Positions 20,676 through 53,653 of a DNA stretch of 64,000 nucleotides are shown piece by piece. Position 1 is the first letter of the stretch, and each line of letters begins with the position of its first letter. Origin of the DNA: an uncultured Flavobacteriales bacterium (GTDB lineage: Bacteria; Bacteroidota; Bacteroidia; Flavobacteriales; BACL11); the NCBI GenBank assembly GCA_905478555.1, contig CAJQIZ010000024.1, positions 8,300 to 72,299 of the forward strand, written 5' to 3'. The translations under genes were made by a program, and so were the position numbers. Below the pieces are notes generated by a model, which was not told where the DNA came from, made no database searches, and saw only the letters and a program-made list of their open reading frames with translations.

Positions 20676-22144
20676 TGAGCAGAAAAATACAGATATATAA
20701 TACTCTTACAAGGCAAAAAGAAGTATTTAATCCTATAGTAGAAAATCATGTAGGAATGTATGTTTGTGGACCTACCGTTTATGGAGACCCACATCTAGGA
20801 CATGCTCGTCCTGGGATTACTTTTGATATCGTGTTTCGTTATCTTACTCATTCTGACTACAAAGTAAGATATGTAAGGAACATCACAGATGCGGGACACC
20901 TTGAAAATGATGCAGATGAAGGAGAAGATAAAATTGCTAAAAAAGCAAGATTAGAACAATTAGAACCTATGGAAATTGTTCAGTTTTATACCATAAGTTA
21001 CCACAAAGCAATGTCAGAATTAAATTGTTTACCTCCAAGTATTGAACCTACTGTAACTGGTCATATTATTGAACAAATTGAAATGGTAAAACAAATCCTG
21101 AAAAATGGATTTGCTTATCAGGTAAATGGAACCGTATATTTGGATGTGAATAAATACAATGAAAAGTATCCTTATGGAACTTTATCAGGCAGAAAATTAG
21201 AAGATACTTTAGAAGGAACTAGAACTTTAGACGGACAATCGGAAAAGAAAAGTCCTGTTGATTTTGCTATTTGGATACAAGCAAACACTGAGCACATCAT
21301 GAGGTGGCCTTCCCCATGGGGAGAAGGATTTCCAGGTTGGCACATAGAATGTTCGGCAATGAGTAAAAAGTACTTGGGTGAAACCTTTGATATACATGGG
21401 GGGGGAATGGACTTGGTTTTCCCACATCATGAAGCGGAAATTGCTCAAAGCAATGCTAGTAATGGTTGTGATCCTGCAAATTATTGGATGCACAACAACA
21501 TGATTACTGTAGATGGAAAAAAGATGGGGAAATCCCTTGGAAACTTTATTAATTTGGAAGAGTTTTTTACTGGTAGTCACGCTAAATTAGAAAGGTCGTA
21601 TGCACCAATGACTATTCGCTTCTTCATTTTGCAAGCACACTACAGAAGTACAGTAGATTTTAGTAATGCAGCTCTACAAGCAGCAGAAAAAGGATTTACA
21701 AAACTGATGAACGCCATGCAAACATTAGGAAGGATCCCAACTTCTGACACTTCAACTTATGATGTAAATGCTTTAGAAGAAAAGTGCTATACCGCCATGG
21801 ATGACGATTTTAATACTCCTATTCTTATTGCACATTTATTTGATGGGGTAAGAATTATCAATTCAGTAAAAGACGGAAAGGAAAGTTTAACTTCAATTGA
21901 TTTATCAAAACTAAAAACAATATTTAGCACGTTTGTTACTGATATTTTAGGGTTTATCTCTCCAAAAGAAAGTAGTGGCAATGACCTAACTAATGAGGTA
22001 ATGGAATTAGTATTACAACTAAGAAGAAATGCAAAAAAGAACAAAAATTTTGAGACTGCTGATTTGATTAGAGAAGAGTTAGACAAGTTAGGTGTTCAAA
22101 TAAAAGATGGTAGAGAAGGAAGCAGCTGGGAAGTTAAAAAATAG
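20675..22144 (+). CDS. cysS: cysteine--tRNA ligase
   Basis: CGPTVY, HLGH, PGWHIEC, KMGKS. Confidence 0.98.
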
Positions 22145-22160
22145 ATTTAAGATGATAGAT

Positions 22161-23183
22161 ATGAAATATGATATTTTTAAAAAAAAAATCCTTCTAAAAA
22201 GAGAAGTTATCTCTGTAATGGGCACAATCATAATGCTATTCATTTTTTCTTGCTCCACAGAACCTCAACAAAAGAAGAAAGAGGTATCTGATCCAAAATT
22301 AAAAATTGATGTTCCTGTATTTAATGCAGATTCGGCTTATATTTTTGTAGAAAAACAAGTAAGTTTCGGACCAAGAGTTATTAGTAGTAAACCATGGAAG
22401 AACTGTGCTATTTGGTTAGAAAAAAAGTTCAGAACTTATACTCCAGATGTAATTGTACAAGAAGCAGCTATCACAACTTATGATGGAAAGAATCACACTT
22501 TAAAAAATATAATTGCTAGTTTTTCTGCTGAGAAAGTAAATAGAATTGCCTTATTTGCTCATTGGGATAGCAGACATATTGCCGACCATGATACCGAAAA
22601 CCAAAACTCCCCTATCTTAGGAGCAAATGATGGAGGAAGTGGAGTTGGAGTATTGTTAGAATTAGCACGACAATTCAGTTTAAAAAATCCAAAAATTGGA
22701 GTGGACATCATCCTCTTTGATGCAGAAGATTATGGGCAGCCAGAAAACTCTAATTTTCCTATTATGCAGGATTCCTGGTGTTTAGGATCGCAACATTGGA
22801 GTAAAACTCCTCATCAATCAAATTATAATGCTCGTTTTGGTATTCTACTAGATATGGTTGGAGCGAAAAATGCAAGCTTTTACATGGAAGGAAATTCCTC
22901 TTATTTTGCTTCTTCTATTCTGCAGAAAGTTTGGAAAAAAGGACATGAAATTGGATTTGGAAAATATTTTGAATATAAAAATGGACCTGAGATTATGGAC
23001 GACCATGTATATGTAAATATACTTGCACACATACCAACTATTGATATTATTGAGTACGACCCATCCACTGAAAGCCATTTTAACAAACATTGGCATACCC
23101 ATAAAGATGATATGAATAATATTGATAGAGAAACATTAAATGCAGTTGGACAAACTTTATTGGAAGTCGTTTATAGAGAGTAA
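22161..23183 (+). CDS. M28 family peptidase / glutaminyl cyclase-like lipoprotein
   Basis: AHWDSR, GANDGGSG, FDAEDYG, WHT; start codon uncertain. Confidence 0.85.
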   Translation: MKYDIFKKKILLKREVISVMGTIIMLFIFSCSTEPQQKKKEVSDPKLKIDVPVFNADSAYIFVEKQVSFGPRVISSKPWKNCAIWLEKKFRTYTPDVIVQEAAITTYDGKNHTLKNIIASFSAEKVNRIALFAHWDSRHIADHDTENQNSPILGANDGGSGVGVLLELARQFSLKNPKIGVDIILFDAEDYGQPENSNFPIMQDSWCLGSQHWSKTPHQSNYNARFGILLDMVGAKNASFYMEGNSSYFASSILQKVWKKGHEIGFGKYFEYKNGPEIMDDHVYVNILAHIPTIDIIEYDPSTESHFNKHWHTHKDDMNNIDRETLNAVGQTLLEVVYRE

Positions 23184-23207
23184 AGGTTCGAATCCTGCTA
23201 CCCCGAC
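23184..23207 (+). repeat. att core copy 1: tRNA-Pro 3' fragment AGGTTCGAATCCTGCTACCCCGAC
   Basis: T-loop TTCGAAT plus acceptor strand TACCCCGA of Bacteroidota tRNA-Pro; begins immediately after the M28 TAA, 5' tRNA half absent. Confidence 0.85.
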
Positions 23208-23213
23208 ACTTTT

Positions 23214-23241
23214 CTCCCCGAAAATCACTGATTTTCGGGAG
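23214..23241 (+). terminator. hairpin just inside the island's left end
   Basis: cccgaaaatc-act-gattttcggg stem; no strong U tail. Confidence 0.45.
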
Positions 23242-23534: not shown

Positions 23535-24779
23535 ATGAAAAAACAGTTATTAGTAAGCTTCTTGGCAAGAAAATCAATGATGAAGAAAAATGGCATGGCG
23601 CCAATTTATTGTCGTGTGAGATATGACGACACCACAACTAAGTTTAGTACTAAAATAGATGTGCCGTATATAAATTGGGATTCCAAAAGAACACGCGTAA
23701 TAGGTAATAGTAAAAAAGCAATGAATTTGCAATTAGAAACGATTCGTATAGAAATAATAGAGAAATACGAAGAGCTTACTAAAGCGAATGTAGTAGTTAC
23801 TTCCAAAAAAATAGTAGATTACTATAAAAATGAAATGGTTATTATGAATTCTATAGTAAATGTAGTTATAGAACATAATAAAAACATGAAATCTCTAATT
23901 GGCAAAGAATACTCTTATGGCTCTTTTAAAAATTATAAAACGACTCTTAAGCATTTACGTAGTTATATTAAAGAAACTTATAGTAAAAAAGACGTATTAC
24001 TAAGTAAAGTAGATTATCATTTTATCTCTCATTTTTCTCTCTATATTTTGAAAGAGACAGAATGTAATAATAATGGTATGATGAAGCATATGCAAAGGCT
24101 TAAGAAAATTATTAATTTCTCTCTTAAGAATAACTACATAACAAATGATCCATTTACTGGATTTAAAATAAGCTTTAAAAGAACAAATAGAGTTTACTTA
24201 ACAAAAGAAGAATTACTTACTATTTCGCAAGTAACATTAAATGAAAGCTTAAGTAAAGTAAGAGACGTTTTTTTGTTCTCTTGCTACACGGGTCTTTCGT
24301 ACGTAGATTTATACAATTTGAAAAAAGAAAACATAAAGAGCGGTAATGATGGATTAGAGTGGATTTACATAAAGCGTAGTAAAACAAACATTCCTTCTAA
24401 TTTACCTCTCTTGCCACCTGCTTTCTCTCTTTTGAAAAAATATAGAGAAATAGAGAAGAAAAATAGAGAGAACAAAGAGAACGCAAGAGAAAAAATAGAA
24501 AGAAATAGAGAAAATAGAGTGTTTCCAATGATTAGTAATCAAAAGACAAATAAAGCTCTTAAAGAAATTTCTCTTTTATGTAATTTTAATAAGAAGATTA
24601 CTTTTCATAGTGCTCGCCATACTTTTGCTACGACCGTTACTTTAACAAACGGAGTGCCTATAGAAACAGTCTCTAAAATGCTTGGACATAATAATATAAG
24701 AACTACTCAAATTTATGCTCGAGTAATTGATTCAAAAATTAGTTCTGATATGCTTATTTTAAGAAATAAAATATTTTAA
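23535..24779 (+). CDS. Bacteroidota tyrosine integrase (arm-binding + SAM-like + catalytic domains)
   Basis: APIYCRV arm domain, YTGLSYVD, RSKT, FHSARHTF, MLGH, TQIYA. Confidence 0.93.
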   Translation: MKKQLLVSFLARKSMMKKNGMAPIYCRVRYDDTTTKFSTKIDVPYINWDSKRTRVIGNSKKAMNLQLETIRIEIIEKYEELTKANVVVTSKKIVDYYKNEMVIMNSIVNVVIEHNKNMKSLIGKEYSYGSFKNYKTTLKHLRSYIKETYSKKDVLLSKVDYHFISHFSLYILKETECNNNGMMKHMQRLKKIINFSLKNNYITNDPFTGFKISFKRTNRVYLTKEELLTISQVTLNESLSKVRDVFLFSCYTGLSYVDLYNLKKENIKSGNDGLEWIYIKRSKTNIPSNLPLLPPAFSLLKKYREIEKKNRENKENAREKIERNRENRVFPMISNQKTNKALKEISLLCNFNKKITFHSARHTFATTVTLTNGVPIETVSKMLGHNNIRTTQIYARVIDSKISSDMLILRNKIF

Positions 24780-28561: not shown

Positions 28562-28657
28562 TATTTTATTCTTTTAATTTAATGCTAATTTATATATTTA
28601 TTTTTTAAAATAACGAATTACTCTTAAATTTCAATTATTTTTTTAATTTTGGCTTAC

Positions 28658-28756
28658 TAGATTGATTAGCGGTGCAAAAAGCGGAGCAATTTTTAGTTTG
28701 AATGCTTGCTGTAATCATGTAAAAAGGTGTTAGGTTGTAATCCTGCTACCCCGACT
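28658..28756 (+). repeat. 99-bp arm + att core copy 2 (island right end)
   Basis: 96/99 identical to the reverse complement of 52167-52265 by manual alignment. Confidence 0.92.
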
Positions 28757-28973
28757 AAAAAATTCATGTTGTGTGACCTGGATATGGGATGCGAATTCAG
28801 GAGTTTGGGCTAAGATGGGTAGTATGACCTCTATAGGAGAGATAGGATCATTTGACAAAAAGATAATGAAAGTAGTTGATATCTTAGTTAGAGAATCTAA
28901 AGATTTAAAAAATCAAACTCTCTTTTATATCTATGACGATGGAACAGTAAAGAAAAGAATAGTTATAGAATAA
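28757..28973 (+). pseudogene. 5'-truncated remnant of a YDDGTV-tail secreted protein
   Basis: Ends KVVDILVRE...LFYIYDDGTVKKRIVIE like the 51-53 kb proteins; no leader or signal peptide; frame runs back into the core. Confidence 0.75.
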
Positions 28974-29033: not shown

Positions 29034-29810
29034 ATGAAAAAAACCCTCATTCTGTCTCTTATACAATCCAATATTTTTTGGGAAGATGTAGATAAAAACC
29101 TTCTTCATCTTGAAGAATTAATATCAAAAAATTCGAATACAGATATTATTCTACTACCTGAAATGTTTAATACTTCTTTTTGTCCAAAATCTAATCATTT
29201 AGCAGAAACTATGAACGGCAAAACGGTGCGTTGGATGAATGAAATTGCTAGAAAGAAAGGATGTGCTATTGCTGGAAGTTTAATGATTTCAGAAGATGAA
29301 AAGGTTTATAATCGCCTAGTTTGGATTTCAAAAAATGGAGCAATACACACTTATGATAAACATCATTTATTCTCTTTAATTAAAGAAGAAAGATACATAA
29401 GTAAAGGAGAAGAAAGGTTAATTGTAGAGATAGAGGGATGGAAAATCTGTCCACTTATTTGTTACGATTTGCGTTTCCCTGTTTTTAGTAGAAATGATGT
29501 AGATTATGATGTACTGATTTATTTAGCAAATTGGCCTGTTAAAAGAATTGAGGCTTGGGATACCCTTCTAAAAGCTCGTTCTATTGAAAATCAGTGTTAC
29601 ACCATTGGGGTGAATAGAGTAGGAGAAGATGGAAACGGAATTCTTTTTAATGGTCACACCAAAGTGTTTGATGCTTTTGGTAACGAATTACTTTCTGCAA
29701 CAGAAAATGAAATAGAGGTGCTTCAAATAGAAATTAGCTTAGAAGATTTAAAGTTAAAAAGAAGGCAGATGAATTTCTTACAAGACAGAGATGATTTTAC
29801 TCTAACGTAA
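29034..29810 (+). CDS. omega-amidase YafV-like nitrilase family amidohydrolase
   Basis: LPEMF, YDKHHLF, ICYDLRFP, ARSIENQ. Confidence 0.9.
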   Translation: MKKTLILSLIQSNIFWEDVDKNLLHLEELISKNSNTDIILLPEMFNTSFCPKSNHLAETMNGKTVRWMNEIARKKGCAIAGSLMISEDEKVYNRLVWISKNGAIHTYDKHHLFSLIKEERYISKGEERLIVEIEGWKICPLICYDLRFPVFSRNDVDYDVLIYLANWPVKRIEAWDTLLKARSIENQCYTIGVNRVGEDGNGILFNGHTKVFDAFGNELLSATENEIEVLQIEISLEDLKLKRRQMNFLQDRDDFTLT

Positions 29811-30840
29811 TCCACTCTAACTCTATGTCCCAATTGGAGCGAATGGTTATTTTTTCATGAAAATGATATGTTTTTTCTGATTGTTTCTTCTCAGAAAAAT
29901 TCCCTGTATCCCAATAACCATTATCATTTTCATCCTGAAAAGCTCTTAAAGTATATTCTCCTGTGGAAATGTTTTTTAGCGTAAAGTTAAAAGTATTCTC
30001 AAATTTTTCTTGAACAATAACTTTATCTGCTTTTAATAGTTGAAGTACAATATTTCCACTAAAATCGGAATTTAAAGTCAAGTTTCCACCTTCTGTTATT
30101 GTTGTATCTTTCAATATCTCTGTAGAATCAATTTCGTATAAAGGATTAAAAGTATAAAGTTTAATTGAGGTGTCTACACCTGCAACAAATAATTTATCTG
30201 AAAAAGAAATAATTTCATCTTCATGATAAAAATAATCATCCCCAGAAAGAGAAACTACTTTGTAACTTCCCTCAATTATATTATTGAAAACGAAATAGCC
30301 GTCTATATTAGATTTACTCACATAATTTGGAGATGTTTTAAAGATTATAGAATCCTGAACATCAAATTGATACAGTAAAACCCAATGGTTTTTTTCATCT
30401 TCCTTTGTAAGAGAGTTCTGTAGAGAAACCTCTAAAGGTTGTAAGTTTATTTCTTTATTAAAAGTATAAATCTCATCAATTAATTTGGTTAAAACATTTC
30501 CTTCTGTAAGGTCTTTTATACAATTTCCAAAACTTACTTCATAATGTAAATTAGTATCTATATAGTCCTTAATAATTATCTCTAATACATTTCCCTTTAC
30601 TTTATGAGAAACTCCATTTAAAGGCGGTGAAATATAGAAATTACCTACAAATTTATGTTCTTGTATTCTTTCATCAAATACATAAGTAAGCTTACTTTCT
30701 TTATTGTTATCTATTTCAATTTGATGAAAGTGATCAATACAACGTGGAGCCTCTTGGTCTTTCTCTCCTCCAGATGGCGCTACCATATTGGCGCATCCGC
30801 TAAATAGTAAAACAAAAAAAATAGAGAGGTGTAATTTCAT
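29797..30840 (-). CDS. Ig-like (Big_5) domain lipoprotein
   Basis: LFSGCA lipobox, PSGGEKD..AP, DENDNGYWDTG; start moved to 30840. Confidence 0.75.
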   Translation of the reverse strand: MKLHLSIFFVLLFSGCANMVAPSGGEKDQEAPRCIDHFHQIEIDNNKESKLTYVFDERIQEHKFVGNFYISPPLNGVSHKVKGNVLEIIIKDYIDTNLHYEVSFGNCIKDLTEGNVLTKLIDEIYTFNKEINLQPLEVSLQNSLTKEDEKNHWVLLYQFDVQDSIIFKTSPNYVSKSNIDGYFVFNNIIEGSYKVVSLSGDDYFYHEDEIISFSDKLFVAGVDTSIKLYTFNPLYEIDSTEILKDTTITEGGNLTLNSDFSGNIVLQLLKADKVIVQEKFENTFNFTLKNISTGEYTLRAFQDENDNGYWDTGNFSEKKQSEKTYHFHEKITIRSNWDIELEWITLE

Positions 30841-30856
30841 ATCAGCAAATATAACA

Positions 30857-31547
30857 TTAAGCAATAGCAATTGTAACAATACTAACTTTTATTCCTTCAA
30901 TTTGTTGTAGTGATGTAATGCAAGCTTCCAAAGTAGATCCAGTTGTTACCACATCATCAATTAGTAAAATGTGTTTATATTTTAATTTTTCTAAATCTGT
31001 CATTCGGAATACTTCTCCAACATTTTCTCATCTGATGTATTTGTTCTTTTTAGTTTGCGATTCAGTATCTACCGTTCTTGTTAGTGTTGTTGTCTCTATT
31101 TCTGTTTTTAGAACTTCTTTATTGCTTTTTCAATACACCTACTTTGGCTGTATCCTCTTATCTTTTCCTTTTTAGAATGAAGAGGAACAGGGATAATATA
31201 GTCAATATCTTTAAAAAATATACCCTCTTCTATTTCATATCCAATTTGTTTGCCTAAAAAGATTCCAACTTTTTGGTTTTCCTCATATTTCAGGGCATAT
31301 ATCATTTTTTGCAAAGGACTATCTTTTACAAATTCGTAAAGAGCCGCAGAATGACCTAATTGAACTTTTCCCCAAAAGAGTTTTTGTAAGTCGTTCTCTT
31401 TTATCTCAAAATGATTTGTTTTTGGAATGTGAAACTGACAAACAGTACAAATACACTGTTCATATTTAAATAGGGAATTGTTCCACCCTAAACAAATTTT
31501 ATGATAAATAAGGAAATGAAATCATCAAAAAGGGAAGAAATCCACAT
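30857..31547 (-). pseudogene. comF: disrupted ComF family phosphoribosyltransferase
   Basis: Fragments in several frames (CICTVC, IPVPLH..RGYSQS, LLIDDVVTTGSTL); frameshifts plus in-frame TGA at 31028-31030. Confidence 0.85.
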
Positions 31548-31557
31548 AAATTAGCAT

Positions 31558-31585
31558 AAAAAAGAGGTCTTAAAAAGACCTCTTT
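31558..31585 (-). terminator. intrinsic terminator after nrdJ
   Basis: aaagaggtct/agacctcttt stem with U run on the minus strand. Confidence 0.75.
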
Positions 31586-31594
31586 ACTATTATT

Positions 31595-34180
31595 TTATCC
31601 ACACTTACTGTATCCACAGTTTACACATTTCAGACAGCCTTCTTCATAAATTAGTCCTTCTGTATTGCAATCAGAACATTTATGATCATCTGCTTTTGTC
31701 CCATCAGGAATAAATGTTTTAAGAGCTCTTACAACTCCGCTTTTCCAAGTATTGATATTTTCATCATAAAGATTCATCTTACCAATTAAATCTACCACAT
31801 ATTGTATTGGCATTCCATGACGTAATACTCCAGAAATTAGTTTTGCATAGTTCCAGAATTCTTTATTGAACGAACGAGAAAGTCCACCAAAAGTAACTTT
31901 GTACCCTTCTTTATCTTCATATTGAAAATCGTACTGACTAGTTCCGTCTTCTCTTTTATTTTTCACTACCCAACCGTACTCTACCCCTTTTGGTAAAACA
32001 AAAACATCTTCAATTTTACCAGTAAAAATCTCATAAGGTCTTCCGTTTAATAAACCAACAACTGCCATCCATTTTTCTTTGTTATTTTGAAAACGGATTA
32101 CTTTTGCATCTAATCTTTTCGGACGAGATGGTGCATGATTTACTGAAAATTCTGAATTAGCTTCTTCAACTCCTCCTTTATCGTCATTAGCAACTAGTAC
32201 TCCAGATCTTGATCCATCTCTGTACACAGTAATTCCTTTTAATCCTTGTTTCCAAGATTCTAAGTAAATATTACTTACTTCTTCTTCTGATACATCATTT
32301 GGTAAATTGATAGTAGAACTAATAGAGTGCGTTACATATTTTTGAACTACAGCTTGCATCTTTACTCTTTGTTCCCAGTTTATTTCTGGAGCTGTAGATC
32401 CCGAATAAGGGCTTTTCTTAGCATCTGTTTCTCCAGTAATTTCCATCCACTTTTTCAAGTTATGGTGGTAAACAGTAAACTCTTGCCACTTGTCTCCCAT
32501 ATCATCAATAAAGTCTACTTTTTCTTCAGTATCTCTATCGTTTAATTTTCTTCTTCTTTTATAGTCCGTCATAAATACTGGCTCTATTCCTGAAGAAGTT
32601 TGAGCTAACATACTAAGTGTCCCTGTAGGCGCAACGGTACTAATAGAAATGTTTCTTCTTCCGAACTTCATCATTCTTTCGTATACTTCCGGAAGTTCTA
32701 CTTTTAACATTTGTACGAATTCTGATGTCTCTTCAATATCTTTATCAAAACCAACAAACGAACCTCTTTCTAGCGACATGTCAATAGAACAATCGAATTC
32801 TGCTCTACATTTCTCTTTCATCATTCCCTCAATAAACTTAATAGATTCATCAGAATCATATTTCATTCCTAGAGCTGCAACCATATCGGCAAGTGCAGTA
32901 AATCCAAGTCCGGTTCTTCTACCCTCTTTACCAGTTTTTAGTAATAACTCCCAAGTTTCTTTTTCTACCATCTTAATGATTTCCGGTTCTTCATCAGCAT
33001 CTACTTTTGCTAATATTCTACCAATAGCTTCTATTTCTAAATCTACTAAATCATCCATTAATCTTTGTCCTTCATAAGTTGCTTGATAGAACTTTTTCAT
33101 ATTGAACTTTGCTTGTGAAGTAAACGGTTGTTCAACAAATTTAAATAGGTTTAAAGCAATTAATCTACAACTGTCTCCACCTTGCATTGCAATTTCCGAA
33201 CAAGGGTTTGTAGATGTATTCTCATATCCTGGATAAACAGATGACGTAGAGTACCAATGTTGTCTGTCCCAGTAAATTAAACCAGGTTCAGCTGTGTTGT
33301 GCGCACATTGTATAATAGTATTCCAAAGATCTCTAGCTTGTATTGTTTTTGTAACTTTAGGTTCGTCAGAATCAATTGGCCATCTATGTGTATATTCTGT
33401 TTTATTATCTACTGCTTTCATAAATTCATCTGAAAGTCTTAGTGAGATATTAGCTCCTGTTACTTGAGATAAATCTTGTTTAATAGTTGTGAAATCTTCC
33501 ACATCTGGGTGAGCGATATCCATAGAAAGCATCAAAGCTCCTCTTCTACCATTCTGAGCTACTTCTCTTGTTGTATGGGAGAATCTTTTCATAAAAGAAA
33601 CTGCACCAGAAGTAGATCCTGCAGCATTTGAAACATGAGAACCAGAGGGTCTTAAGTTAGAGATGTCTACTCCAACACCACATCTTCTTTTAAATAATTG
33701 AGCTAATTGTTGGTCGGTATAAAATACTCCACCATAAGAATCATGCATTTCAGGAACAACAATACAGTTTGATAATGAAGCAATTTTATAAATATTTCCA
33801 AGTGAACTCATTACACTTCCTTGTGGGATGATGTGTCCAAAATTCTCGAATAAATCAAAAATTCTTCCCTCACTTAAGTGCTCTCTATTCTGTCCGTATT
33901 CCGATAAGAATTTAGCCGATCCATTCAGATTATATTTTAATTTATAATCTTCTTCAATCCTCCCGAACTCTCTAGCCATTCTTCTATGCATATCTTCTGG
34001 AGATTGTTCTACAAAGTTTTCTTCAAAATCCTTCATAGCATACTTATTCATCCATGTAGTAGCGGCTAATTCATCTCCATTAAAGTATTTAATACTTTCT
34101 GCCAATACTTCATTATAAGTATAAGTCTGAACTTTTTGGTCGTTTAGTAAGTTTGTGTTTGCTTCTTTTGTTTTTGCCAT
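31595..34180 (-). CDS. nrdJ: adenosylcobalamin-dependent (class II) ribonucleotide reductase
   Basis: SNC, TNPCSEI, APTGT, KGITVYRDGSR, C-terminal CxxC..CxxC. Confidence 0.9.
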   Translation of the reverse strand: MAKTKEANTNLLNDQKVQTYTYNEVLAESIKYFNGDELAATTWMNKYAMKDFEENFVEQSPEDMHRRMAREFGRIEEDYKLKYNLNGSAKFLSEYGQNREHLSEGRIFDLFENFGHIIPQGSVMSSLGNIYKIASLSNCIVVPEMHDSYGGVFYTDQQLAQLFKRRCGVGVDISNLRPSGSHVSNAAGSTSGAVSFMKRFSHTTREVAQNGRRGALMLSMDIAHPDVEDFTTIKQDLSQVTGANISLRLSDEFMKAVDNKTEYTHRWPIDSDEPKVTKTIQARDLWNTIIQCAHNTAEPGLIYWDRQHWYSTSSVYPGYENTSTNPCSEIAMQGGDSCRLIALNLFKFVEQPFTSQAKFNMKKFYQATYEGQRLMDDLVDLEIEAIGRILAKVDADEEPEIIKMVEKETWELLLKTGKEGRRTGLGFTALADMVAALGMKYDSDESIKFIEGMMKEKCRAEFDCSIDMSLERGSFVGFDKDIEETSEFVQMLKVELPEVYERMMKFGRRNISISTVAPTGTLSMLAQTSSGIEPVFMTDYKRRRKLNDRDTEEKVDFIDDMGDKWQEFTVYHHNLKKWMEITGETDAKKSPYSGSTAPEINWEQRVKMQAVVQKYVTHSISSTINLPNDVSEEEVSNIYLESWKQGLKGITVYRDGSRSGVLVANDDKGGVEEANSEFSVNHAPSRPKRLDAKVIRFQNNKEKWMAVVGLLNGRPYEIFTGKIEDVFVLPKGVEYGWVVKNKREDGTSQYDFQYEDKEGYKVTFGGLSRSFNKEFWNYAKLISGVLRHGMPIQYVVDLIGKMNLYDENINTWKSGVVRALKTFIPDGTKADDHKCSDCNTEGLIYEEGCLKCVNCGYSKCG

Positions 34181-34447
34181 ATTTATTGTTCTCGATTAAG
34201 CGTTATATATTTATTGTCTTATTTTTCTGTTTACAATTTTAAAAATATAATCTCTCATATTACACGTTTATTATTTGTTTACTAACATATTTTTTAACAA
34301 AATCTAAAAATATTTTGTGCTAGATAAATATAATATAGTGTAAAAAACACACTATCTTTTCATGAAAATTCTAAGTTGTTGAAATTCAGTAAAATGAATT
34401 TAAAAAATAAAGTGTAGAAAATATTTTCATAATAAAGTTTTTAACAA

Positions 34448-35137
34448 CTATGATAAAACGATATTTAAAATACTGTCGAATAATATTTTCCCATCGGCAT
34501 TATTTAATTCCGCATCTGCAGCTCGTTCAGGGTGCGGCATCATTCCAAATACATTTCTGTTTTTATTACAAACTCCAGCAATATTTAATAAAGATCCATT
34601 TGGATTAGCCTCTTCTGTAATATTTCCATTTTCATCAGAATACTTAAATAAAATCTGCTCATTAGTAATTAACTCTTGTAAAGTCTCTTCATCAGCATGG
34701 TACCTACCTTCTCCGTGTGCAATTGGTATTTTTACTGCATTATCAGAATATTGATTAGTAACTAATGTATTTTTTGTAATAGCTGTTAAATGTATATTTT
34801 TACAAATAAATTTATGATTAGTATTATGTAGAAGTGCTCCTGGTAAAAGTCCTGACTCACATAAAATCTGGAATCCGTTACAGATACCCATAACATATCC
34901 ACCATTATTAGCATGTTCTACTAATTTTTCCATAATTGGAGAGTAGTTAGCAATTGCTCCCGATCTTAAGTAATCTCCAAAAGAAAATCCTCCAGGAAGA
35001 ATAATGAAATCACAATTTTGTAAGTTAGTATCTTTATGCCATAACTTTACTACCTCTTGTTTCATTATGCTTTCTAAAACATAAACCATATCCATATCAC
35101 AATTCGATCCCGGGAAAACGACTACTCCAAATTTCAT
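34448..35137 (-). CDS. purQ: phosphoribosylformylglycinamidine synthase I
   Basis: FPGSNCD, GICNGFQ, MMPHPER. Confidence 0.97.
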   Translation of the reverse strand: MKFGVVVFPGSNCDMDMVYVLESIMKQEVVKLWHKDTNLQNCDFIILPGGFSFGDYLRSGAIANYSPIMEKLVEHANNGGYVMGICNGFQILCESGLLPGALLHNTNHKFICKNIHLTAITKNTLVTNQYSDNAVKIPIAHGEGRYHADEETLQELITNEQILFKYSDENGNITEEANPNGSLLNIAGVCNKNRNVFGMMPHPERAADAELNNADGKILFDSILNIVLS

Positions 35138-35164
35138 ATAATTTGTTTTAATTGAATTGCAAAA

Positions 35165-36103
35165 TTACATATTAATCATTGTAATTCTATAAAAAATAGA
35201 ACTAAATAGAAAAAGGAAAAATATAAATTCGGACCACCTTATTTTTATATGATACACAAAATAATTACCTATAATCACACTAAGTGGCGTTACTATTAAT
35301 ATTACTGTTTCTTCCTTGCCTGAAGATAGAAATATAAACACAGAAAAAAAGAAATATAAAATTATAATTGTAAAGGATTCTCTGCTTCTGATACTCTTTT
35401 TATACATCCACCTAAAAATTTCAAAGAATGACAACAAACTCACTAATGATAAAACATAAAACCATATTTTCTGATTTAATGCTATTTCCACTATACTAAA
35501 ATTAAATAGTTTAAAATTAAATTCAAATACAGGAAAATATAGTTCAGTTTTAGTAAATATTTGATAACTCCACAAGAAGAAATAAGGAACAAACAAAGAG
35601 AGTATACTGATAGTATTGATTCTCCAATTAATGTTTCTGAAAATTAAAGTAGATATTAATATTATTGGAAATAAAAGTAAAATATTAGGTAGATAAAACG
35701 ATAAAATAGAAAGTAAAATACCCGCATTAAACACTATAGAAAATGGTTGTTTCTGCTTATAAAGTTGTAGTAAAAAGTTTAAGAAAAACAATAGAACAAA
35801 TGAAATCAACATCATTTTATGATTCGTTACAAATGTTGTGTTTAGAAGTAAGAAGACAAATGCTAATACAAAATTTGGTCTTTTAATGATGTCTTTATCA
35901 TAGATTAAGTTATTTAACCCAATAGAGTGGAAAAACGTAAGTATTGCACTAATTACTACTAGTAAAACAGAATAAAATGGAAATTTGTTTTCAATATTTT
36001 GAAACTGAGAAGTGAAAAATGAGGGTATAAAAAACAATATGGAAAACAGTAGAAATAGTATAATTAAATACGAATGACTATTTTTTAAGGATTTTAGAAT
36101 CAT
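35165..36103 (-). CDS. multi-pass membrane protein (DUF6427-like)
   Basis: Highly hydrophobic; typical Bacteroidota position near purD. Confidence 0.55.
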   Translation of the reverse strand: MILKSLKNSHSYLIILFLLFSILFFIPSFFTSQFQNIENKFPFYSVLLVVISAILTFFHSIGLNNLIYDKDIIKRPNFVLAFVFLLLNTTFVTNHKMMLISFVLLFFLNFLLQLYKQKQPFSIVFNAGILLSILSFYLPNILLLFPIILISTLIFRNINWRINTISILSLFVPYFFLWSYQIFTKTELYFPVFEFNFKLFNFSIVEIALNQKIWFYVLSLVSLLSFFEIFRWMYKKSIRSRESFTIIILYFFFSVFIFLSSGKEETVILIVTPLSVIIGNYFVYHIKIRWSEFIFFLFLFSSIFYRITMINM

Positions 36104-36153
36104 TTATTGTTAAAATATTTTAGTTTTGCATTCAAATTAATACAGTTTTACAG

Positions 36154-36330
36154 ATGAACGACTTTTTATACGCTACTGGAGATTTATTCGAATCAATTTT
36201 TGATGTAATGCCGCTTTTTGGAGACTACATCAACTACTTTTTTATGGTTGTTATTTTCACTTTTCTTGTTGTATGGACGACTAAGATGTTTGGCCATAAA
36301 AAGAGAGGAGAAGAACACGCTTCATCATAA
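36154..36330 (+). CDS. 58-aa small membrane protein (DUF6341-like), not in the ORF track
   Basis: MNDFLYATGDLFESIFDVMPLFGDYINYFFMVVIFTFLVVWTTKMFGHKKRGEEHASS; TAGTTTTG promoter-like box at 36121. Confidence 0.7.
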   Translation: MNDFLYATGDLFESIFDVMPLFGDYINYFFMVVIFTFLVVWTTKMFGHKKRGEEHASS

Positions 36331-37596
36331 ATCAAATCCGATATCTTTTCGGTAGTACTTTCCTTTAAAATCTATCTTTTCAGCATTCTGTAAAGATTTA
36401 TTTACCGCTTTATTTATATCTTGCCCAAAAGAGGTTATCGCCATAACCCTACCTCCATTTGTAACTATTTTATCATCTTTAGTTATTGTACCTGAATGGA
36501 ATAAGATACTACCTTCTAACTCATCAAAACCATTTATTTCCATTCCTTTTTCATAGCTTTCAGGATAACCTCCTGAAACTAACATTATAGTTGCTGCTAC
36601 CTCTTCTGAAATATCAAAATCTACTTCTGAAAAAGAACCGTTTCCGATTCCCTTAAAAAGATTTAGTAAATCTGATTTTATTCTAGGTATAACCACTTCC
36701 GTTTCAGGGTCTCCCATTCTTACATTGTACTCTATTACCTTTGGGTTTCCATTTTCAACCATTAATCCGATAAAGATAAATCCTTTATAATCAATATTTT
36801 CTTCTACTAATCCTTTTATAGTTGGTTTTATAATTTCTCTTTCTACTTTCTCAATAAAAAATCTATCTACAAAAGGTACTGGTGAAATAGCTCCCATTCC
36901 TCCAGTGTTTAGTCCTTTATCTCCTTCTCCAATTCTTTTATAATCTTTTGCTGAAGGTAAAATTTTATAGGAAACTCCATCCGTTAAAACAAATACCGAA
37001 AGTTCTATTCCTTTTAGATGTTCTTCAATTACAACCTTACTACTTGCATCACCAAATTTTGCATCTGCAAGCATCTCTTTTAATGATTCTTTAGCTTCTT
37101 CAAGGGTTTCAGGAATTAAAACCCCCTTACCAGCAGCTAATCCATCTGCTTTTAAAACATACGGAGCACTAAGTGTTTCTAAAAACTGATATCCCTCCTC
37201 TAAAGTATCTTTAGTAAAACTTTGATAAGCGGCTGTTGGAATATTATGTTTTATCATAAATTTCTTAGAAAACTCTTTACTTCCTTCTAATCGAGCTCCT
37301 TTTTTTGAAGGTCCGATTACTGTAATATGTTGAAGAGATGCGTCTTCATTAAAAAAATCGTAGATACCATTTACTAGTGGATCTTCTGGACCCACCACTA
37401 TCATGCTTACTTGTTCTGAAATACAGAGTTCTTTTATCTTTTCAAAATCATTTACTCCGATATTAACATTGTTACCCACCTGATTTGTACCTGCATTTCC
37501 AGGTGCTATAAATAGTTTTTTACACAAACTTGATTGAGATATTTTCCATGCAAACGCATGTTCTCTTCCCCCGCTTCCTAATATTAATACATTCAT
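36325..37596 (-). CDS. purD: phosphoribosylamine--glycine ligase
   Basis: GSGGREHA, KADGLAAGKGV, NTGGMG. Confidence 0.97.
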   Translation of the reverse strand: MNVLILGSGGREHAFAWKISQSSLCKKLFIAPGNAGTNQVGNNVNIGVNDFEKIKELCISEQVSMIVVGPEDPLVNGIYDFFNEDASLQHITVIGPSKKGARLEGSKEFSKKFMIKHNIPTAAYQSFTKDTLEEGYQFLETLSAPYVLKADGLAAGKGVLIPETLEEAKESLKEMLADAKFGDASSKVVIEEHLKGIELSVFVLTDGVSYKILPSAKDYKRIGEGDKGLNTGGMGAISPVPFVDRFFIEKVEREIIKPTIKGLVEENIDYKGFIFIGLMVENGNPKVIEYNVRMGDPETEVVIPRIKSDLLNLFKGIGNGSFSEVDFDISEEVAATIMLVSGGYPESYEKGMEINGFDELEGSILFHSGTITKDDKIVTNGGRVMAITSFGQDINKAVNKSLQNAEKIDFKGKYYRKDIGFDL

Positions 37597-38342
37597 TATT
37601 CTTCCATAGCTTTTAATATTTCTTCTGTTAGTTCCATATTATGAAATACCTGTTGTACATCATCATCTTCCTCTAACTTGTCTAATAGTTTTAGAACTAA
37701 TTTCGCATCTTCTGCAGAGATAGTCTTAGTGTTATTTGGTATTCTTTGTAATTCTGAATTTTGAATTTCAATCTCTAAATTTTCTAAGCAATTCTGCATA
37801 TTACTAAAATCAGGGAAATTGCAATATGCTGTAATTGCTTCCTCATCCACTTCTAACTCCTCTAGTCCTCCATCAATTAATTCCATCTCTAACTCTTCTG
37901 TATCTATAGATATTTGATTAGGCTCAATAGTAAAAACTCCCTTCCTGTCAAATATAAACTCCAAAGAACCATTAGTACCTAAATTTCCTTCACATTTACT
38001 AAAATGTGACCTTACATTAGCAACTGTTCTGTTGTTATTATCAGAAGTACAGTCTACAAAAACTGCAATTCCATGTGGAGCATATCCCTCCAAAGTAATC
38101 TCTACATAGTTAGCCGCATCTGCACCACTTGCTTTTTTAATAGCTCTTTCTACATTATCTTTTGGCATGTTGGCAGCTTTTGCATTTTGCATAACTTGCC
38201 TCAATCTGGAATTAGAATCTGGATCTGGACCACCTTCTTTTACAGCCATTACAATTTCTCTTCCTATTCTAGAAAACGCTTTGGACATTGCAGACCAACG
38301 CTTCATCTTTCTTGCTTTTCTGAATTCGAACGCTCTTCCCAT
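37596..38342 (-). CDS. yebC: YebC/PmpR family protein
   Basis: MGRAFEFRK, NMPKDNVERAIKK, DDVQQVFHN. Confidence 0.93.
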   Translation of the reverse strand: MGRAFEFRKARKMKRWSAMSKAFSRIGREIVMAVKEGGPDPDSNSRLRQVMQNAKAANMPKDNVERAIKKASGADAANYVEITLEGYAPHGIAVFVDCTSDNNNRTVANVRSHFSKCEGNLGTNGSLEFIFDRKGVFTIEPNQISIDTEELEMELIDGGLEELEVDEEAITAYCNFPDFSNMQNCLENLEIEIQNSELQRIPNNTKTISAEDAKLVLKLLDKLEEDDDVQQVFHNMELTEEILKAMEE

Positions 38343-38351
38343 ATTTATTTT

Positions 38352-40142
38352 TTAATCATCAAGTTTTAATACTGCCATAAATGCTTTCTGTGGAATTTCT
38401 ACATTCCCAACTTGTTTCATTCTCTTTTTACCTTTTTTCTGCTTCTCTAATAATTTTCTCTTTCTAGAAATATCCCCTCCATAACATTTTGCTGTTACAT
38501 CTTTTCGGAGAGCTTTTATTGTTTCTCTACTTATAATTTTAGCTCCAATTGCAGATTGTATCGCAATATCAAATTGTTGTCTTGGTATTAATTCTTTTAG
38601 TTTTACGCATATTTTCCTTCCTAAATTCTGGGCATTATTTCTATGGATAAGTGCAGAAAGAGCATCTACTCCATCTCCATTTAAAAGTATGTCTAATTTT
38701 ATTAAGTCAGATTGTCGGTATTCTGAAGGTTGGTAATCGAAAGAAGCATACCCCTTAGAAACAGATTTTAATTTATCGTAAAAATCAAATACTATTTCTC
38801 CTAATGGCATATTAAAAGATAATTCAACTCTATCAGTAGTTAAATAAACCTGATTAGTAAGTTCTCCTCTTTTATCAATACATAAACTCATAATAGTCCC
38901 AACATACTCAGCTTTTGTAATGATTTGTGCTTTTATATAAGGTTCTTCTACATAATCTAATGTACTTGGATCTGGGAAATCAGTCGGATTGTGAACCTCA
39001 ATTTTTGCTCCGGCAGTTGTGTAAGCTTTATATGATACATTAGGGACAGTGGTAATAACAATCATATCAAATTCCCTTTCCAATCTCTCTTGTATTATTT
39101 CCATGTGCAGCATTCCTAAGAATCCACATCTAAAGCCAAAACCAAGTGCTACAGAAGATTCTGGTTCGAAAGTTAAAGAGGCATCATTTAATTGCAGTTT
39201 CTCCATTGATTTTCGGAGTTCTTCATAATCTTCTGTTTCTACAGGGTATATACCCGCAAAAACCATTGGTTTTACATCTTCAAATCCTTTAATTGCTTCT
39301 AAAGATGGATTGTGTTTTGTGGTAATAGTATCTCCCACTTTTACATCTCTAGCTTCTTTTATCCCAGAGATAATATAACCTACCTCTCCTGTGCTTAATT
39401 TCTTTTTTGGTTCTTGTTTAAATTTTAAAACTCCAATCTCATCTGCAAAATATTCCTTTCCAGTTGCTAGGAATTTCACTTTCTCTCCTTTTTTCAGCTC
39501 CCCATTTATAATTTTAAAATAAGCTTCAATACCCCTAAAAGAATTGTAAACCGAATCAAAAATCATAGCTTGAAGTGGAGCGTTTGGATTTCCTTCGGGA
39601 GACGGAACTCTGTTTACAATTGCTTCTAAAATAGCGTCAATACCTATTCCAGTTTTTGCAGAAGCGGGGATAATATCCTCATCATTACAACCAATCAAAT
39701 CAATAATATGATCTTTTACTACTTCAGGGTCAGCTGATGGTAAGTCAATTTTATTTAAAACAGGAATAATTTCTAAGTCGTTTTCTAAAGCTAAATACAG
39801 ATTAGAAATAGTTTGCGCCTGAATTCCTTGTGCCGCATCAACAATTAAAAGAGCTCCTTCACAAGCAGCAATAGAACGAGACACTTCATAAGAAAAATCT
39901 ACATGTCCTGGGGTGTCAATTAGGTTTAGGGTATAGTCTTCTCCATTAAGAGAGTACTCCATTTGTATGGCATGACTCTTTATAGTAATCCCTCTTTCTT
40001 TCTCCAAATCCATACTATCTAACAGCTGATCTTGAGACTCTCTATCGGTAACTGCACCAGTAAATTCCAGTAACCTGTCAGCTAGAGTACTTTTCCCATG
40101 GTCAATATGAGCAATAATGCAAAAATTTCTAATGTTCTTCAT
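38352..40142 (-). CDS. lepA: elongation factor 4
   Basis: [29 protein letters not shown]; start at 40142. Confidence 0.98.
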
Positions 40143-40226
40143 AAGTATGCGAAAATACATTTTTTAGTTCAATTAAATAATGTTGTAGCTGTCAAAAAAA
40201 TGATTATTATTGCTGAAACAGAAAAA

Positions 40227-40475
40227 ATGAGTAAATTGAAAATCAGTAAAAGAAGGCATCTTATAAAAGCAATAAGTTGGAGTACATTAGCTATGATTAC
40301 AACTTATATTGTTTTAACTGAACTTCCCCCCTTAATAGGTTATGAACCAATTGCTAAGGAAGGAGCGGGGTTTTTAGTCGTTTTGGATAGGTTAGTAAAA
40401 TTAGTATTTTATTACATACACGAAAGAACTTGGTTTGCTTCTAATTGGGGGGTAATAAAACCTAAAGATCAATAA
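40227..40475 (+). CDS. DUF2061-like small membrane protein
   Basis: RHLIKAISW...YYIHERTW; start moved to 40227. Confidence 0.7.
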   Translation: MSKLKISKRRHLIKAISWSTLAMITTYIVLTELPPLIGYEPIAKEGAGFLVVLDRLVKLVFYYIHERTWFASNWGVIKPKDQ

Positions 40476-40524
40476 TTTAATTCTTCTTTTTATAGTTGTA
40501 ATGAATGTTCAAATCATTTATGTC

Positions 40525-41151
40525 TTAAAGATTTTCTTTAATTAGTTCTTCTATATCTTCCTCTATTTCATAAAGGTATTTTTTAGGTTGTGGTCCTTTT
40601 TTTCTGAGAAGAAAAGCAATAATTATGCCAGCAATAAATCCAGACAAATGACCTTCCCAAGACACTTGATTAGGCATTGGTAACATTCCCCAAAAGAAAC
40701 TTCCGTACATAAAAATCACAAAAAAAGATAAGATAGAAAGTCTAGGTTGTTTTTTTATAAATCCACTTATTAATACAAATGACGCAAGAGCATAAACTAC
40801 TCCACTCGCTCCGATGACATTAGCATTAGGATTACCAATAATAAATAAAATTATACCGCTCAAAAGGTAAGAATACAAAAACACTTTATTAGAAATAGTA
40901 TTATAAACTTGAGAGATGATCCCTCCTAAAATTAAAATAGGATAACTATTATTTATTAAATGGTTTAGATCAGCATGTAGAAAAGGAAAGGTAAATATAC
41001 CAGTAATTTTATTAAAATCCCACGCTTTTATACTGAATTGTCTAAAATCAGTTTCATTAATATATTCAAATCCCTTCACAAACCATATTGCAAAAACAAA
41101 CAAAATAGGGATGAACATTATATTAATAATATGTGATAAATTCTTTTTCAT
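40525..41151 (-). CDS. rhomboid intramembrane serine protease
   Basis: HLINN, IGASG, SWEGHLSG. Confidence 0.92.
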   Translation of the reverse strand: MKKNLSHIINIMFIPILFVFAIWFVKGFEYINETDFRQFSIKAWDFNKITGIFTFPFLHADLNHLINNSYPILILGGIISQVYNTISNKVFLYSYLLSGIILFIIGNPNANVIGASGVVYALASFVLISGFIKKQPRLSILSFFVIFMYGSFFWGMLPMPNQVSWEGHLSGFIAGIIIAFLLRKKGPQPKKYLYEIEEDIEELIKENL

Positions 41152-41196
41152 TTATACTTTAAAATTGAGGATAAAATTATAGTTTTACATACAATT

Positions 41197-43956: not shown

Positions 43957-44168
43957 TTATTTTTTCTGATAAATAGTATATACAATAATATGATTGCAAT
44001 TACACCTATAAACGTATTGCCCGCATCTTTCACATTACCAACTGGATCCCATCCAAATAGCGTATCGTTGAGTAATAGCTGAACAATAATTCCTAAACAT
44101 AGAAAAGTTAGTGCGGTTGCAGTAACTTCAGTCATTAATTCTCTAATCTTAGTTAATTTATCTTTCAT
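43953..44168 (-). CDS. small two-helix membrane protein (paralog of 44243-44470)
   Basis: 71 aa, hydrophobic; LGIIVQLL...DPVGNV aligns with LSIVADFL...NVISNI. Confidence 0.65.
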   Translation of the reverse strand: MKDKLTKIRELMTEVTATALTFLCLGIIVQLLLNDTLFGWDPVGNVKDAGNTFIGVIAIILLYILFIRKNN

Positions 44169-44191
44169 TAGTTTAGTTTTAATTAAAAAAG

Positions 44192-44222
44192 AAAATAGCC
44201 CTTAAATGTTAAGGGCTATTTT
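44192..44222 (-). terminator. intrinsic terminator between the two small membrane genes
   Basis: aaaatagcccttaa-atg-ttaagggctatttt perfect stem. Confidence 0.8.
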
Positions 44223-44242
44223 ATCAAATCTTAATAGTATGA

Positions 44243-44470
44243 TTATTTACTTGAAATTAAGTTCCAAACAATCAAAAGACCAATTAATCCAATTACACCA
44301 CCTCCGGCAAAACCAGTTACAACTCCTGTAATATTACTTATAACATTAATTCCTGAAATTGATCCAGCTCCGAAAAGGAAATCAGCTACAATAGAAAGAG
44401 CTAATAATCCCATGATTAATCCTGTTAGACCTTTAAAAAAGTCATTGAAGTACTTAAATACTTTGTCCAT
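44243..44470 (-). CDS. small Gly-rich membrane protein
   Basis: 75 aa, two hydrophobic segments, own terminator. Confidence 0.7.
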   Translation of the reverse strand: MDKVFKYFNDFFKGLTGLIMGLLALSIVADFLFGAGSISGINVISNITGVVTGFAGGGVIGLIGLLIVWNLISSK

Positions 44471-44873
44471 AATAAAAATAAATTTTAGTTAATAATACCC
44501 CAAACTTAGAAACATATTTCCATTTTTAAGTCATTTACTTCATTTTTATTTCAAATTAGTATCATCTTTAATTTTTTAGATAAATATCTACTAAATTACG
44601 TATAAACTTTTAGTTATCAAATGTTTAACTATATTAATTTATAAAAATAGTGTGATATAAGGTAGCTATTTTCAACATAAAATTGTTAAGAATCTAAAAC
44701 AGATGTAATTAACTAGTTTACAAATACTTAAATGTAAATACCATTAGAATGCTTCTATTTTTTGGTTCATTTTTTCAATATTTACTTTTGTGTAGTAAAA
44801 AAATATTAAAAAATCAAAAAATCATTAAAATTGATATAATTATAACTTCTAATAAAATTAAAAATAGTGGAAT

Positions 44874-46019: not shown

Positions 46020-46101
46020 CTTTTTAAGTCTTGTTTTTATAAGGTTAGCAAACCTACAAAAATTTCAGTATTTAATTTTACTTTTGTAAAAAATTAATCT
46101 G

Positions 46102-47007: not shown

Positions 47008-47028
47008 ATTTGCCAAAAATATTTTAAG

Positions 47029-47928: not shown

Positions 47929-48491
47929 TGGGAAAGTTAATTGTAATATCAGCACCATCTGGTTCAGGGAAAACTTCTATTGTTAGTTATTTACTAAAAA
48001 ATATGGAAACACTTTCTTTCTCCATTTCTGCTTGTAGTAGAGTGAAAAGAGAAAATGAAATAGAAGGAAAAGATTATCATTTTTTAGGAATAGAAGGATT
48101 TAAGAGGAGTATAAAAGAAGATTCCTTCTTAGAATGGGAGGAAGTATATAAAAATCAATTTTACGGAACTTTAAAATCCGAAGTGGAGAGAATTTGGAGT
48201 GAAGGAAAAACTGTAATTTTTGATGTAGATGTTGTGGGCGGATTAAATATTAAAAAACAATATCCAAAAGAATGTTTATCTATTTTTATTATGCCACCAT
48301 CAGTAGAGGTCTTAGCAGAAAGATTGATTGGGAGAGGGTCGGAATCAGATGAAAGTTTACAAAAAAGATTAGATAAAGCAGAGGAAGAAATATCTCAAAA
48401 TCAAGAGTTCGATACAGTGATTTTAAATGACGATTTATCCATAGCTTGTGAGGAAACGCAGGAAGTAATTACAAATTTTATAAAATCTTAA
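47928..48491 (+). CDS. gmk: guanylate kinase
   Basis: APSGSGKT, EGKDYHF, YGT. Confidence 0.96.
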   Translation: MGKLIVISAPSGSGKTSIVSYLLKNMETLSFSISACSRVKRENEIEGKDYHFLGIEGFKRSIKEDSFLEWEEVYKNQFYGTLKSEVERIWSEGKTVIFDVDVVGGLNIKKQYPKECLSIFIMPPSVEVLAERLIGRGSESDESLQKRLDKAEEEISQNQEFDTVILNDDLSIACEETQEVITNFIKS

Positions 48492-48492
48492 A

Positions 48493-49065: not shown

Positions 49066-49066
49066 A

Positions 49067-49465: not shown

Positions 49466-49538
49466 TCACTTCTTTACTCCATTATCTAATCTATTATCCT
49501 AACTTTGCAAAAAATAATTCCACAAAAGGAATTCTCAT

Positions 49539-53608: not shown

Positions 53609-53653
53609 AAAGCAAACTTACAGAAAATTATGGGAAATGTTGAAGAGAAAAAA
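53609..53653 (-). promoter_or_regulatory. 45-nt cassette leader with TAAGTTTG -7 promoter box
   Basis: Same length as, and 39/45 identical to, 52123-52167. Confidence 0.8.

Follow-up and report, generated by a model that had tools for sequence, protein, structure and literature searches.

The 64,000-nt stretch of DNA analysed here (the window) belongs to contig C24 of the genome assembly G000 (1.79 Mb, 44 contigs) of an uncultured Flavobacteriales bacterium. It contains two 24-nt sequences, located at the stop codons of an M28 peptidase gene and of sdhB, which are probably orphan copies of the 3' end of tRNA-Pro(TGG) and serve a single family of tyrosine-integrase elements as alternative attachment sites in the chromosome (attB). 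This reading, drawn from sequence comparison, is preferred because the same type of island is found at the true tRNA-Pro, at the M28 orphan and at the sdhB orphan, and because the M28 orphan is also found bare or bearing a cassette. The orphan cores at M28, sdhB and a third gene, coaD, are most likely conserved attB sites across species, acting as long-lived docks for a defence island and for gene cassettes. Here we present the sites, their occupancy in relatives and metagenomes, and an inversion of the segment that lies between them.

Copies of the 24-nt core were searched in the 64-kb window with up to three mismatches, and the expected number was taken from shuffled sequences. tRNA genes were searched with ARAGORN in the window and in the whole G000 genome, domains were called with Pfam and NCBIfam, and synteny was assessed by tblastn. 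The relatives of G000 used for comparison are uncultured marine Flavobacteriales, represented by metagenome-assembled genomes (MAGs). Contigs of four sequencing runs (X2, X5, X6 and X8; run shares 0.45-0.6) were placed on the window. Metagenome contigs were scanned with a pattern composed of TAA, R and the core, which yielded 35 loci from 34 contigs.

The window holds exactly four copies of the core (s1 to s4 in Table 1), compared with 0.00 expected from the shuffles. Site s1 is identical at 24 of 24 positions to the 3' end (T-stem to C74) of the sole tRNA-Pro(TGG) gene of G000, located at C40:3746-3823, where the 24 nt that precede the CA of its encoded CCA equal s1; s1 and s2 have 22 of 24 nt in common. 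ARAGORN detected 31 tRNAs in the whole genome, among them this single intact tRNA-Pro(TGG), and none in the window; nothing convincingly tRNA-like was seen by eye to the left of the orphan cores. The observation of the initial annotation that the M28 and sdhB cores come directly after stop codons, with no tRNA 5' half, is thereby confirmed at the sequence level: such a half is missing at all four sites, and no tRNA-Pro lies upstream of the integrase. Throughout G000, 16 core copies were found by pattern and 17 by a 17-mer, the tRNA included; six congeners carry 2-18 copies each, and four genomes of other genera 0-1.

In G000 the tRNA-Pro gene runs into an encoded CCA and hairpin-like sequence; in the outgroup G016 the gene also continues into CCA, with a terminator hairpin behind it. 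Occupied tRNA-Pro genes (G001, G003, G004, G005 and G015) end in ...CCCCGAC without an encoded CCA and continue into element sequence. Because its CCA and hairpin-like continuation resemble those of G016 and differ from the occupied genes, the intact primary site of G000 looks unoccupied.

An M28 match was obtained in four of the other six genomes in the genus; G001 (79% complete) and G003 (89%) had none. The stop is followed in G004 by the core (TAA-GGGTTCGAATCCTGCTACCCCGAC), 1 nt and then the stop of a convergent gene, a homolog of window 49067-49465, with a total spacer of 25 nt. In G005 the core (TAA-GGGTCTAATCCTGC) is fused to a P arm (see below), in G002 it is decayed, and no core was found in G006 or in 15 loci from other genera. 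The M28 proteins of the species with a conserved core are only about 75% identical, and the M28 C-terminus is of constant length in the relatives. By reading of the outgroup loci, the distance from the M28 stop to the stop of the convergent gene is 1-40 nt whereas sdhB and its neighbour are separated by 4-30 nt. In the relatives, no tRNA stands beside any of 19 M28 loci or any of 21 sdhB loci. The junction between M28 and s1 is bridged by assembled contigs of X2 (record 3) and X5 (record 12), which come from different studies and cover 22622-23267.

Among the 35 metagenome loci, the in-frame upstream gene was M28 in 18 (17 by tblastn, one by eye), CoaD-like in seven and one further truncated locus, and SdhB in three (L110, L129 and L131); 6 had no long upstream open reading frame (ORF). 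Thus 28 of the 35 TAA-anchored loci lie at just three genes, M28, coaD and sdhB, and at all three, for sdhB in these metagenome loci, the core abuts the stop codon exactly. Orphan cores in congeners are found 0-33 nt behind co-oriented housekeeping genes, namely a CoaD-like gene (0 nt; G003, G004), an HMGL-like gene (17 nt; G004), a carboxyl transferase gene (27 nt; G003) and an SdhB-type gene (33 nt; G003, G004). The junctions are taken to be real, and the earlier proposal that sites other than tRNA genes, at the ends of expressed housekeeping genes, are used is supported.

Two side observations concern these genes. G000 itself has a decayed orphan core behind coaD (TAA|GGGTTCGAAGACTGCT, C14 ~51320-51345), which runs into the stop of a convergent gene. 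The SdhB protein of G000 is 88-93% identical to that of three other genera (G011, G015, G016) and of the congener G006, and only 71-75% identical to that of the congeners G005 and G002; at E<=1e-60 it has no match in G003 or G004, which have an SdhB-type ORF with a different C-terminus. The sdh genes may have been replaced, or the genus boundary may be loosely drawn.

The sites differ in what they carry. A related island adjoins the true tRNA-Pro in G001 (74% nucleotide identity over 1591 nt; integrase 69% identical at the amino acid level), and the left end of the island, including its hairpin, also follows tRNA-Pro in G004 and G015. The island follows M28-TAA-core in the metagenome loci L132, L123 and L109, and sdhB-TAA-core in L110 (85% nucleotide identity over 325 nt; integrase 69%). 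G004, L111, L134 and L127 have a bare M28 orphan, and most other M28 loci show the P' sequence of a cassette after the core, including L124 and L137, whose M28 is 98% identical to that of the window. In X5, X6 and X8 parts of the island interior (~25.4-28.4 kb) have low or zero depth with covered flanks, which is weak evidence taken from contigs only. As expected of an island, the integrase adjoins one att end, direct repeats of the tRNA end stand at both ends and site occupancy varies in relatives. tRNA-targeting islands normally leave an intact tRNA at the integrase-proximal end; here s1 is preceded by the M28 stop instead. As in tandem accretion, units without integrase have the att sites and arms of the integrase-bearing element at their ends.

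On the preferred reading, the orphan 24-mer would exist first and an island or cassette would then enter at the core. The dinucleotide at the T-loop position is CG, AT or CT at first sites and mostly GT, with a few AT or TT, behind a P arm; because it travels with the left flank, strand exchange would occur to its right, leaving it with that flank. The cores would abut stop codons because the ancestral spacers are a few nt long, so that a tolerated insertion must touch the stop; this would account for most of the adjacency, and a TAA-RGG left half-site possibly helps it. TAA stands 0-3 nt before the core at five of nine orphan loci, compared with a fraction of 0.144 of genome positions (binomial 0.0048, the loci being defined post hoc). 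Three candidate routes to the first orphans were considered and rejected, because each needs a pre-existing full core or one more precise deletion: exchange of the standard attB x attP type, inversion with the true tRNA site, and formation of a solo core by excision.

Table 1. Features of the window bearing on the attachment sites, the island, the cassettes and the inverted segment
Feature	Position	Strand	Remarks
M28 peptidase gene	22107..23183	+	358 aa; Pfam Peptidase_M28, E 7e-37; stop TAA at 23181-23183; left flank of s1
Orphan core s1 (attL-type)	23184..23207	+	AGGTTCGAATCCTGCTACCCCGAC; abuts M28 stop TAA; no tRNA 5' part
Inverted repeat, island left end	23217..23239	+	10-bp stem, no T tract; fold -17 kcal/mol, z -2.9
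Tyrosine integrase	23535..24779	+	Pfam Arm-DNA-bind_5, Phage_int_SAM_5 and Phage_integrase; 328 nt from s1
C5 cytosine methyltransferase	24850-26085	+	Island cargo; Pfam/NCBIfam
BglII-like endonuclease	26063-26674	-	Island cargo; Pfam/NCBIfam
GmrSD-type endonuclease	26705-28561	-	Island cargo; Pfam/NCBIfam
P arm, island right end	28625..28731	+	~105 nt; direct repeats AGCGGTGCAAA / AGCGGAGCAAT; common to integrase-less cassettes
Core s2 (attR-type)	28732..28755	+	GT at T-loop position; from core search
Remnant R	28756..28973	+	3' end of a cassette gene (..LFYIYDDGTVKKRIVIE*), without promoter and 5' part; then P-arm start fused to CN-hydrolase promoter region
Housekeeping segment X	29034..50789		CN hydrolase to small gene 49067-49465, plus DEAD helicase; inverted relative to G004, G016 and other outgroups
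Cassette gene c2	51208..52122	-	Signal peptide; Peptidase_C39_2-like; conserved 3' element cut at ~51166; no core after it
Core s3 (internal, GT type)	52168..52191	-	P arm upstream, 52192 to ~52300; 45-nt promoter-like P' downstream, 52123-52167
Cassette gene c1	52325..53608	-	427 aa; signal peptide; no family; C-terminus ..IYDDGTVEKRIVVE
P' of cassette c1	53609..53653	-	TTTTTT, then TAAGTTTG, then ATGAAAAA
Orphan core s4	53654..53677	-	AT at T-loop position; 1 nt after sdhB stop; TAA-A-AGGTTATAATCCTGCTACCCCGAC at 53654-53681
sdhB	53679..54431	-	Pfam Fer2_3/Fer4; stop codon 53679-53681; sdhA and sdhC adjacent

The ORF listed for M28 shares 38 nt with cysS, and its alignment with relatives begins only near residue 41 (window 22107-22230); its true start is probably further downstream.

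Array 1 consists of one 5.6-kb island between s1 and s2, with the integrase and restriction/defence genes, plus a cassette remnant (R), and array 2 of one complete cassette between s4 and s3, plus a second gene with a truncated 3' element; 'arrays' is a generous term for this content. The inverted repeat at the left end of the island is kept wherever the island type sits, the same sequence following the true tRNA-Pro in G001, G004 and G015; the hairpin after s1 was not called as a terminator. The catalytic region of the integrase C-terminus (HxxR/LGH/Y) aligns to XerA and IntI4, and the protein is the sole one of its type in G000, with two distant homologs at 23-29% identity. The G+C content of the island is 28.1%, that of the flanks 31%, and composition is uninformative.

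The internal core copies of G000 have in common an upstream P arm of ~105 nt and a downstream P'. The P arm in front of s2 and that in front of s3 agree at 57 of their last 60 nt, with similarity extending to about -105. Two adjacent direct repeats of the P arm, AGCGGTGCAAA and AGCGGAGCAAT at 28675-28698, are candidates for arm-type integrase binding sites. P' is laid out as TTTTTT, the promoter-like motif TAAGTTTG and the start ATGAAAAA, 42-48 nt after the core; its TAnnTTTG is presumably the Bacteroidetes -7 box. Each mobile unit comprises the right part of the core, the promoter-like P', the cargo, the P arm and the left part of the core, and we infer that cassettes would be moved in trans by the island integrase.

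The cassette genes encode small proteins with signal-peptide-like N-termini, several of which end in ..YDDGTVEKRIIIE. This C-terminus had no Pfam or NCBIfam match even with E values up to 5 on the last 100 aa; it may resemble a sorting tail of the type IX secretion system (T9SS). A C-terminus of ~20 aa (..LFYIYDDGTVEKRIIIE) is common to unrelated cassette families, namely C39-like, CotH, beta-propeller-like and unknown ones (window 51208-51270, 52325-52390 and 28920-28973; L062, L069, L070 and L078); it too is without a Pfam or NCBIfam match and may be an unrecognised sorting signal. At 28974-29036, about the first 60 nt of a P arm stand in front of the CN-hydrolase gene start, with the fusion at the common TAAGTTTG motif; in G004 the CN-hydrolase gene stands directly behind core and P', and a core seems to have been deleted upstream of it in G000. 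Elsewhere in G000, tRNA-Arg(ACG) has a P-arm-type Pro core ~600 nt behind it on the same strand (C15:1171-1867). The 3.7 kb of extra DNA between M28 and the 49067 homolog in G016 includes TTTGAAAGCTGCAATCCTGCTACCC (L033 8441-8457), which resembles a P arm fused to a core. Finally, locus L079 (G002:C53:1-4900) contains five repeats of ~52 nt, spaced by 600-1200 nt, each of which covers a tRNA-Pro-like sequence (acceptor ..CCTGCCACCTCGAC) from its anticodon arm to its 3' end and has a terminator-like hairpin behind it; this array seems to represent a second family of elements whose crossover position differs.

Where an outgroup genome has both genes on the same contig, M28 and sdhB point towards each other across a segment of ~20-30 kb. 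sdhB lies on the CN-hydrolase side in G016, and M28 lies on the side of the 49067 homolog in G016 and G004 (M28 facing 49465..29034); the same adjacencies were read in several other outgroups. In G000, segment X stands in the opposite order to G016 and G004, as determined by tblastn synteny and Pfam, and inverted cores occur at its two boundaries (+ at 23184 and 28732, - at 52191 and 53677). In G004, a + core follows M28, and two - cores stand next to the start of the CN-hydrolase gene. A contig of X8 (record 31; 313 nt, depth 15.9), from a population ~99% identical to G000, joins 70 nt through the core to window 28732-28974; the 30 nt shown equal window 53678-53707 on the minus strand, that is, the sdhB end and TAAA. 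By its sequence, this contig is the un-inverted sdhB-core junction. As far as contigs and MAGs tell, both orientations of the segment are present (P arm-core-R in G000 vs sdhB-core-R in X8). Another X8 contig, leaving the M28 core at 23201, runs into DNA without a match in G000, which complicates the picture.

A single inversion between the sdhB orphan and an inner core of an array behind M28 would give the G000 order, and the two arrays would converge because the housekeeping segment between inverted cores was flipped. The agent of the inversion is most likely the integrase, which is favored over homologous recombination because the flanks of the breakpoints are unrelated (sdhB vs P arm on the left, R vs P' of c1 on the right) and have only 17-24 identical nt in common. 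Such an identity is marginal for RecA.

It could be argued that the orphans are indeed attB sites and that homologous or illegitimate recombination, not the integrase, inverted the M28-sdhB segment. We regard this as rather unlikely, if still to be reckoned with: G011 is rearranged in the same region without intact cores, and a Prochlorococcus inversion between identical tRNA-targeting elements is ascribed to homologous recombination (10.1101/2020.12.28.424599), but the G000 and X8 breakpoints fall exactly at cores whose flanks are unrelated. Quite improbable is integration of the island de novo at a short secondary TAA(A)AGGTT site, with the rest of the s1 core supplied by the element. The excess of TAA before orphan cores would fit such an event, as would the GTAAATAGG held by the P arm just upstream of its own core. 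Against it, bare complete 24-mers stand at the same place in G004, L111, L134 and L127, and the full site therefore predates the island; moreover, s1 has the tRNA-type CG where s2 and most P-arm-type cores have GT, and the metagenome loci cluster at three genes and are not spread over many gene ends. Of the secondary-site proposal in the initial annotation, the recurring TAA stands, whereas the target appears to be a complete, pre-existing and conserved 24-mer, not a short motif hit ad hoc; the motif may bear on the first seeding of the orphans.

The other proposal made there, that a tRNA-Pro once stood after M28 and sdhB and lost its 5' half, we hold to be very improbable. The identity of s1 with the tRNA 3' end, T-loop CG included, is what a truncated gene would show, but none of the 19 M28 and 21 sdhB loci of relatives has a tRNA, the outgroup spacers after M28 are so short that no tRNA could have stood there, the whole G004 spacer of 25 nt is taken up by the 24-mer, and the M28 C-terminus has kept its length; the left boundary TAA|RGGTTCG recurs at three genes, and three separate precise deletions would be needed. 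That the 24-mers are selected RNA-level elements (signals of mRNA 3' ends or terminators) which merely resemble a tRNA end is equally hard to credit. They are kept after the same genes across species in spite of the divergence of M28, but at the gathering score Rfam has no match in the window, and a search of the arrays and att regions gave a single chance-level one. Moreover, the 5' strand that an acceptor/T minihelix needs is missing from the fragment, no site was called as terminator-like, and every occupied copy is a junction of unrelated DNA blocks with P and P' arms. An assembly mis-join at the repeat, with the island really following an intact tRNA-Pro, is extremely improbable. Although the MAG comprises 44 contigs and repeats the core 16 times, the exact repeat of 24-25 nt is below the 31-nt words of Logan, the M28|core junction is found in the genomes of four species, each assembled on its own, in contigs from two runs of two studies and in 18 metagenome loci, and the tRNA-Pro on C40 continues into native-looking CCA and hairpin-like sequence, much as in G016.

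Several points weigh against the orphan attB reading and its extension to the inversion. Every genome compared is metagenome-assembled, and the run evidence consists of contigs built at k=31, not of raw reads; among the X2 contigs listed, none bridges s2. The TAA statistic is rough as well as post hoc, and TAA is built into the metagenome pattern, so that the scan cannot measure orphans without it. Standard attB x attP exchange cannot alone create a complete core in a core-less spacer and does not explain the first seeding. Finally, G011, of another genus and with one core, has a G000-like orientation of segment X together with an inverted sdh block, and intact cores are therefore not needed for rearrangement of the region; in G000 the DEAD helicase separates 49465 from the array, but in G004 it is not beside M28, so that the history exceeds one clean inversion.

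A bolder extension, which we consider unlikely as a whole, would make the orphan tRNA-Pro ends landing pads that the host retains and recombination refreshes, sparing the sole tRNA-Pro. They would make the ends of a few housekeeping operons into integron-like docks for promoter-bearing cassettes of secreted proteins and for defence islands, and, as two of them face each other, the integrase would flip the ~30-kb M28-sdhB block back and forth, as a switch that is thrown repeatedly.

That islands stand in tandem at tRNA genes is well established; the present case differs in its anchor, a detached 24-nt tRNA end in near-zero spacers that is intact across species whose flanking proteins have diverged. 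In streamlined marine Flavobacteriales, an att sequence on its own can thus last and serve again as a docking site in the chromosome, and island finders that require an integrase and an intact tRNA would miss such islands. The window is most likely also a concrete case of att sites driving the inversion of a core-genome block, and the series of bare, cassette-bearing, island-bearing and decayed sites should be useful for the study of attB birth. The literature searches made gave no description of conserved orphan tRNA-end attB sites at housekeeping stop codons, which does not prove that none exists.

Among described systems, the tRNA-anchored islands and tycheposons of Prochlorococcus come closest; there, tyrosine recombinases target tRNA 3' ends including tRNA-Pro(tgg), with partial tRNA copies between tandem elements, degenerate remnants, strain-variable occupancy and an element-associated inversion (Hackl et al., 10.1101/2020.12.28.424599). 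The likeness extends to the streamlined marine host, tandem elements at tRNA ends, remnants, variable occupancy and inversion. The islands described there adjoin full-length tRNA genes, whereas here a bare 24-nt end follows M28, sdhB and coaD, and single-gene cassettes carry a promoter-like P' and a common ~105-nt arm.

With integrons, the cassettes have in common that single, co-oriented genes stand in arrays at a recombination site served by one tyrosine recombinase; they differ in carrying their own promoter-like sequence and in using tRNA-derived sites. The integrase is not of the IntI type (51.7 bits with the integron-integrase model TIGR02249, cutoff 265), and its N-terminal Arm-DNA-bind_5 domain is typical of Bacteroidota integrases; by eye, without a systematic fold, no attC-like inverted copy of the core was seen in P arm and core. 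In streptococcal tandem accretion, integrase-less cis-mobilizable elements (CIMEs) bounded by the same att sites are reportedly stacked head to tail at one site; those are remnants of larger elements anchored in an intact gene or tRNA, whereas the units here are one-gene cassettes at an orphan tRNA fragment. The ssrA islands of Dehalococcoides, in which repeated ssrA 3' ends are said to mark successive insertions anchored at an intact tmRNA gene, resemble the present case in that the 3' end of a small RNA gene recurs as several direct repeats. Salmonella genomic island 1 (SGI1) reportedly integrates at a secondary site in the chromosome as well as at its primary one, and is found in tandem arrays. 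Known secondary att sites are generally weak look-alikes used when the primary site is missing, whereas the sites described here are perfect, conserved copies of the core that appear to be used while the primary tRNA site stands empty.

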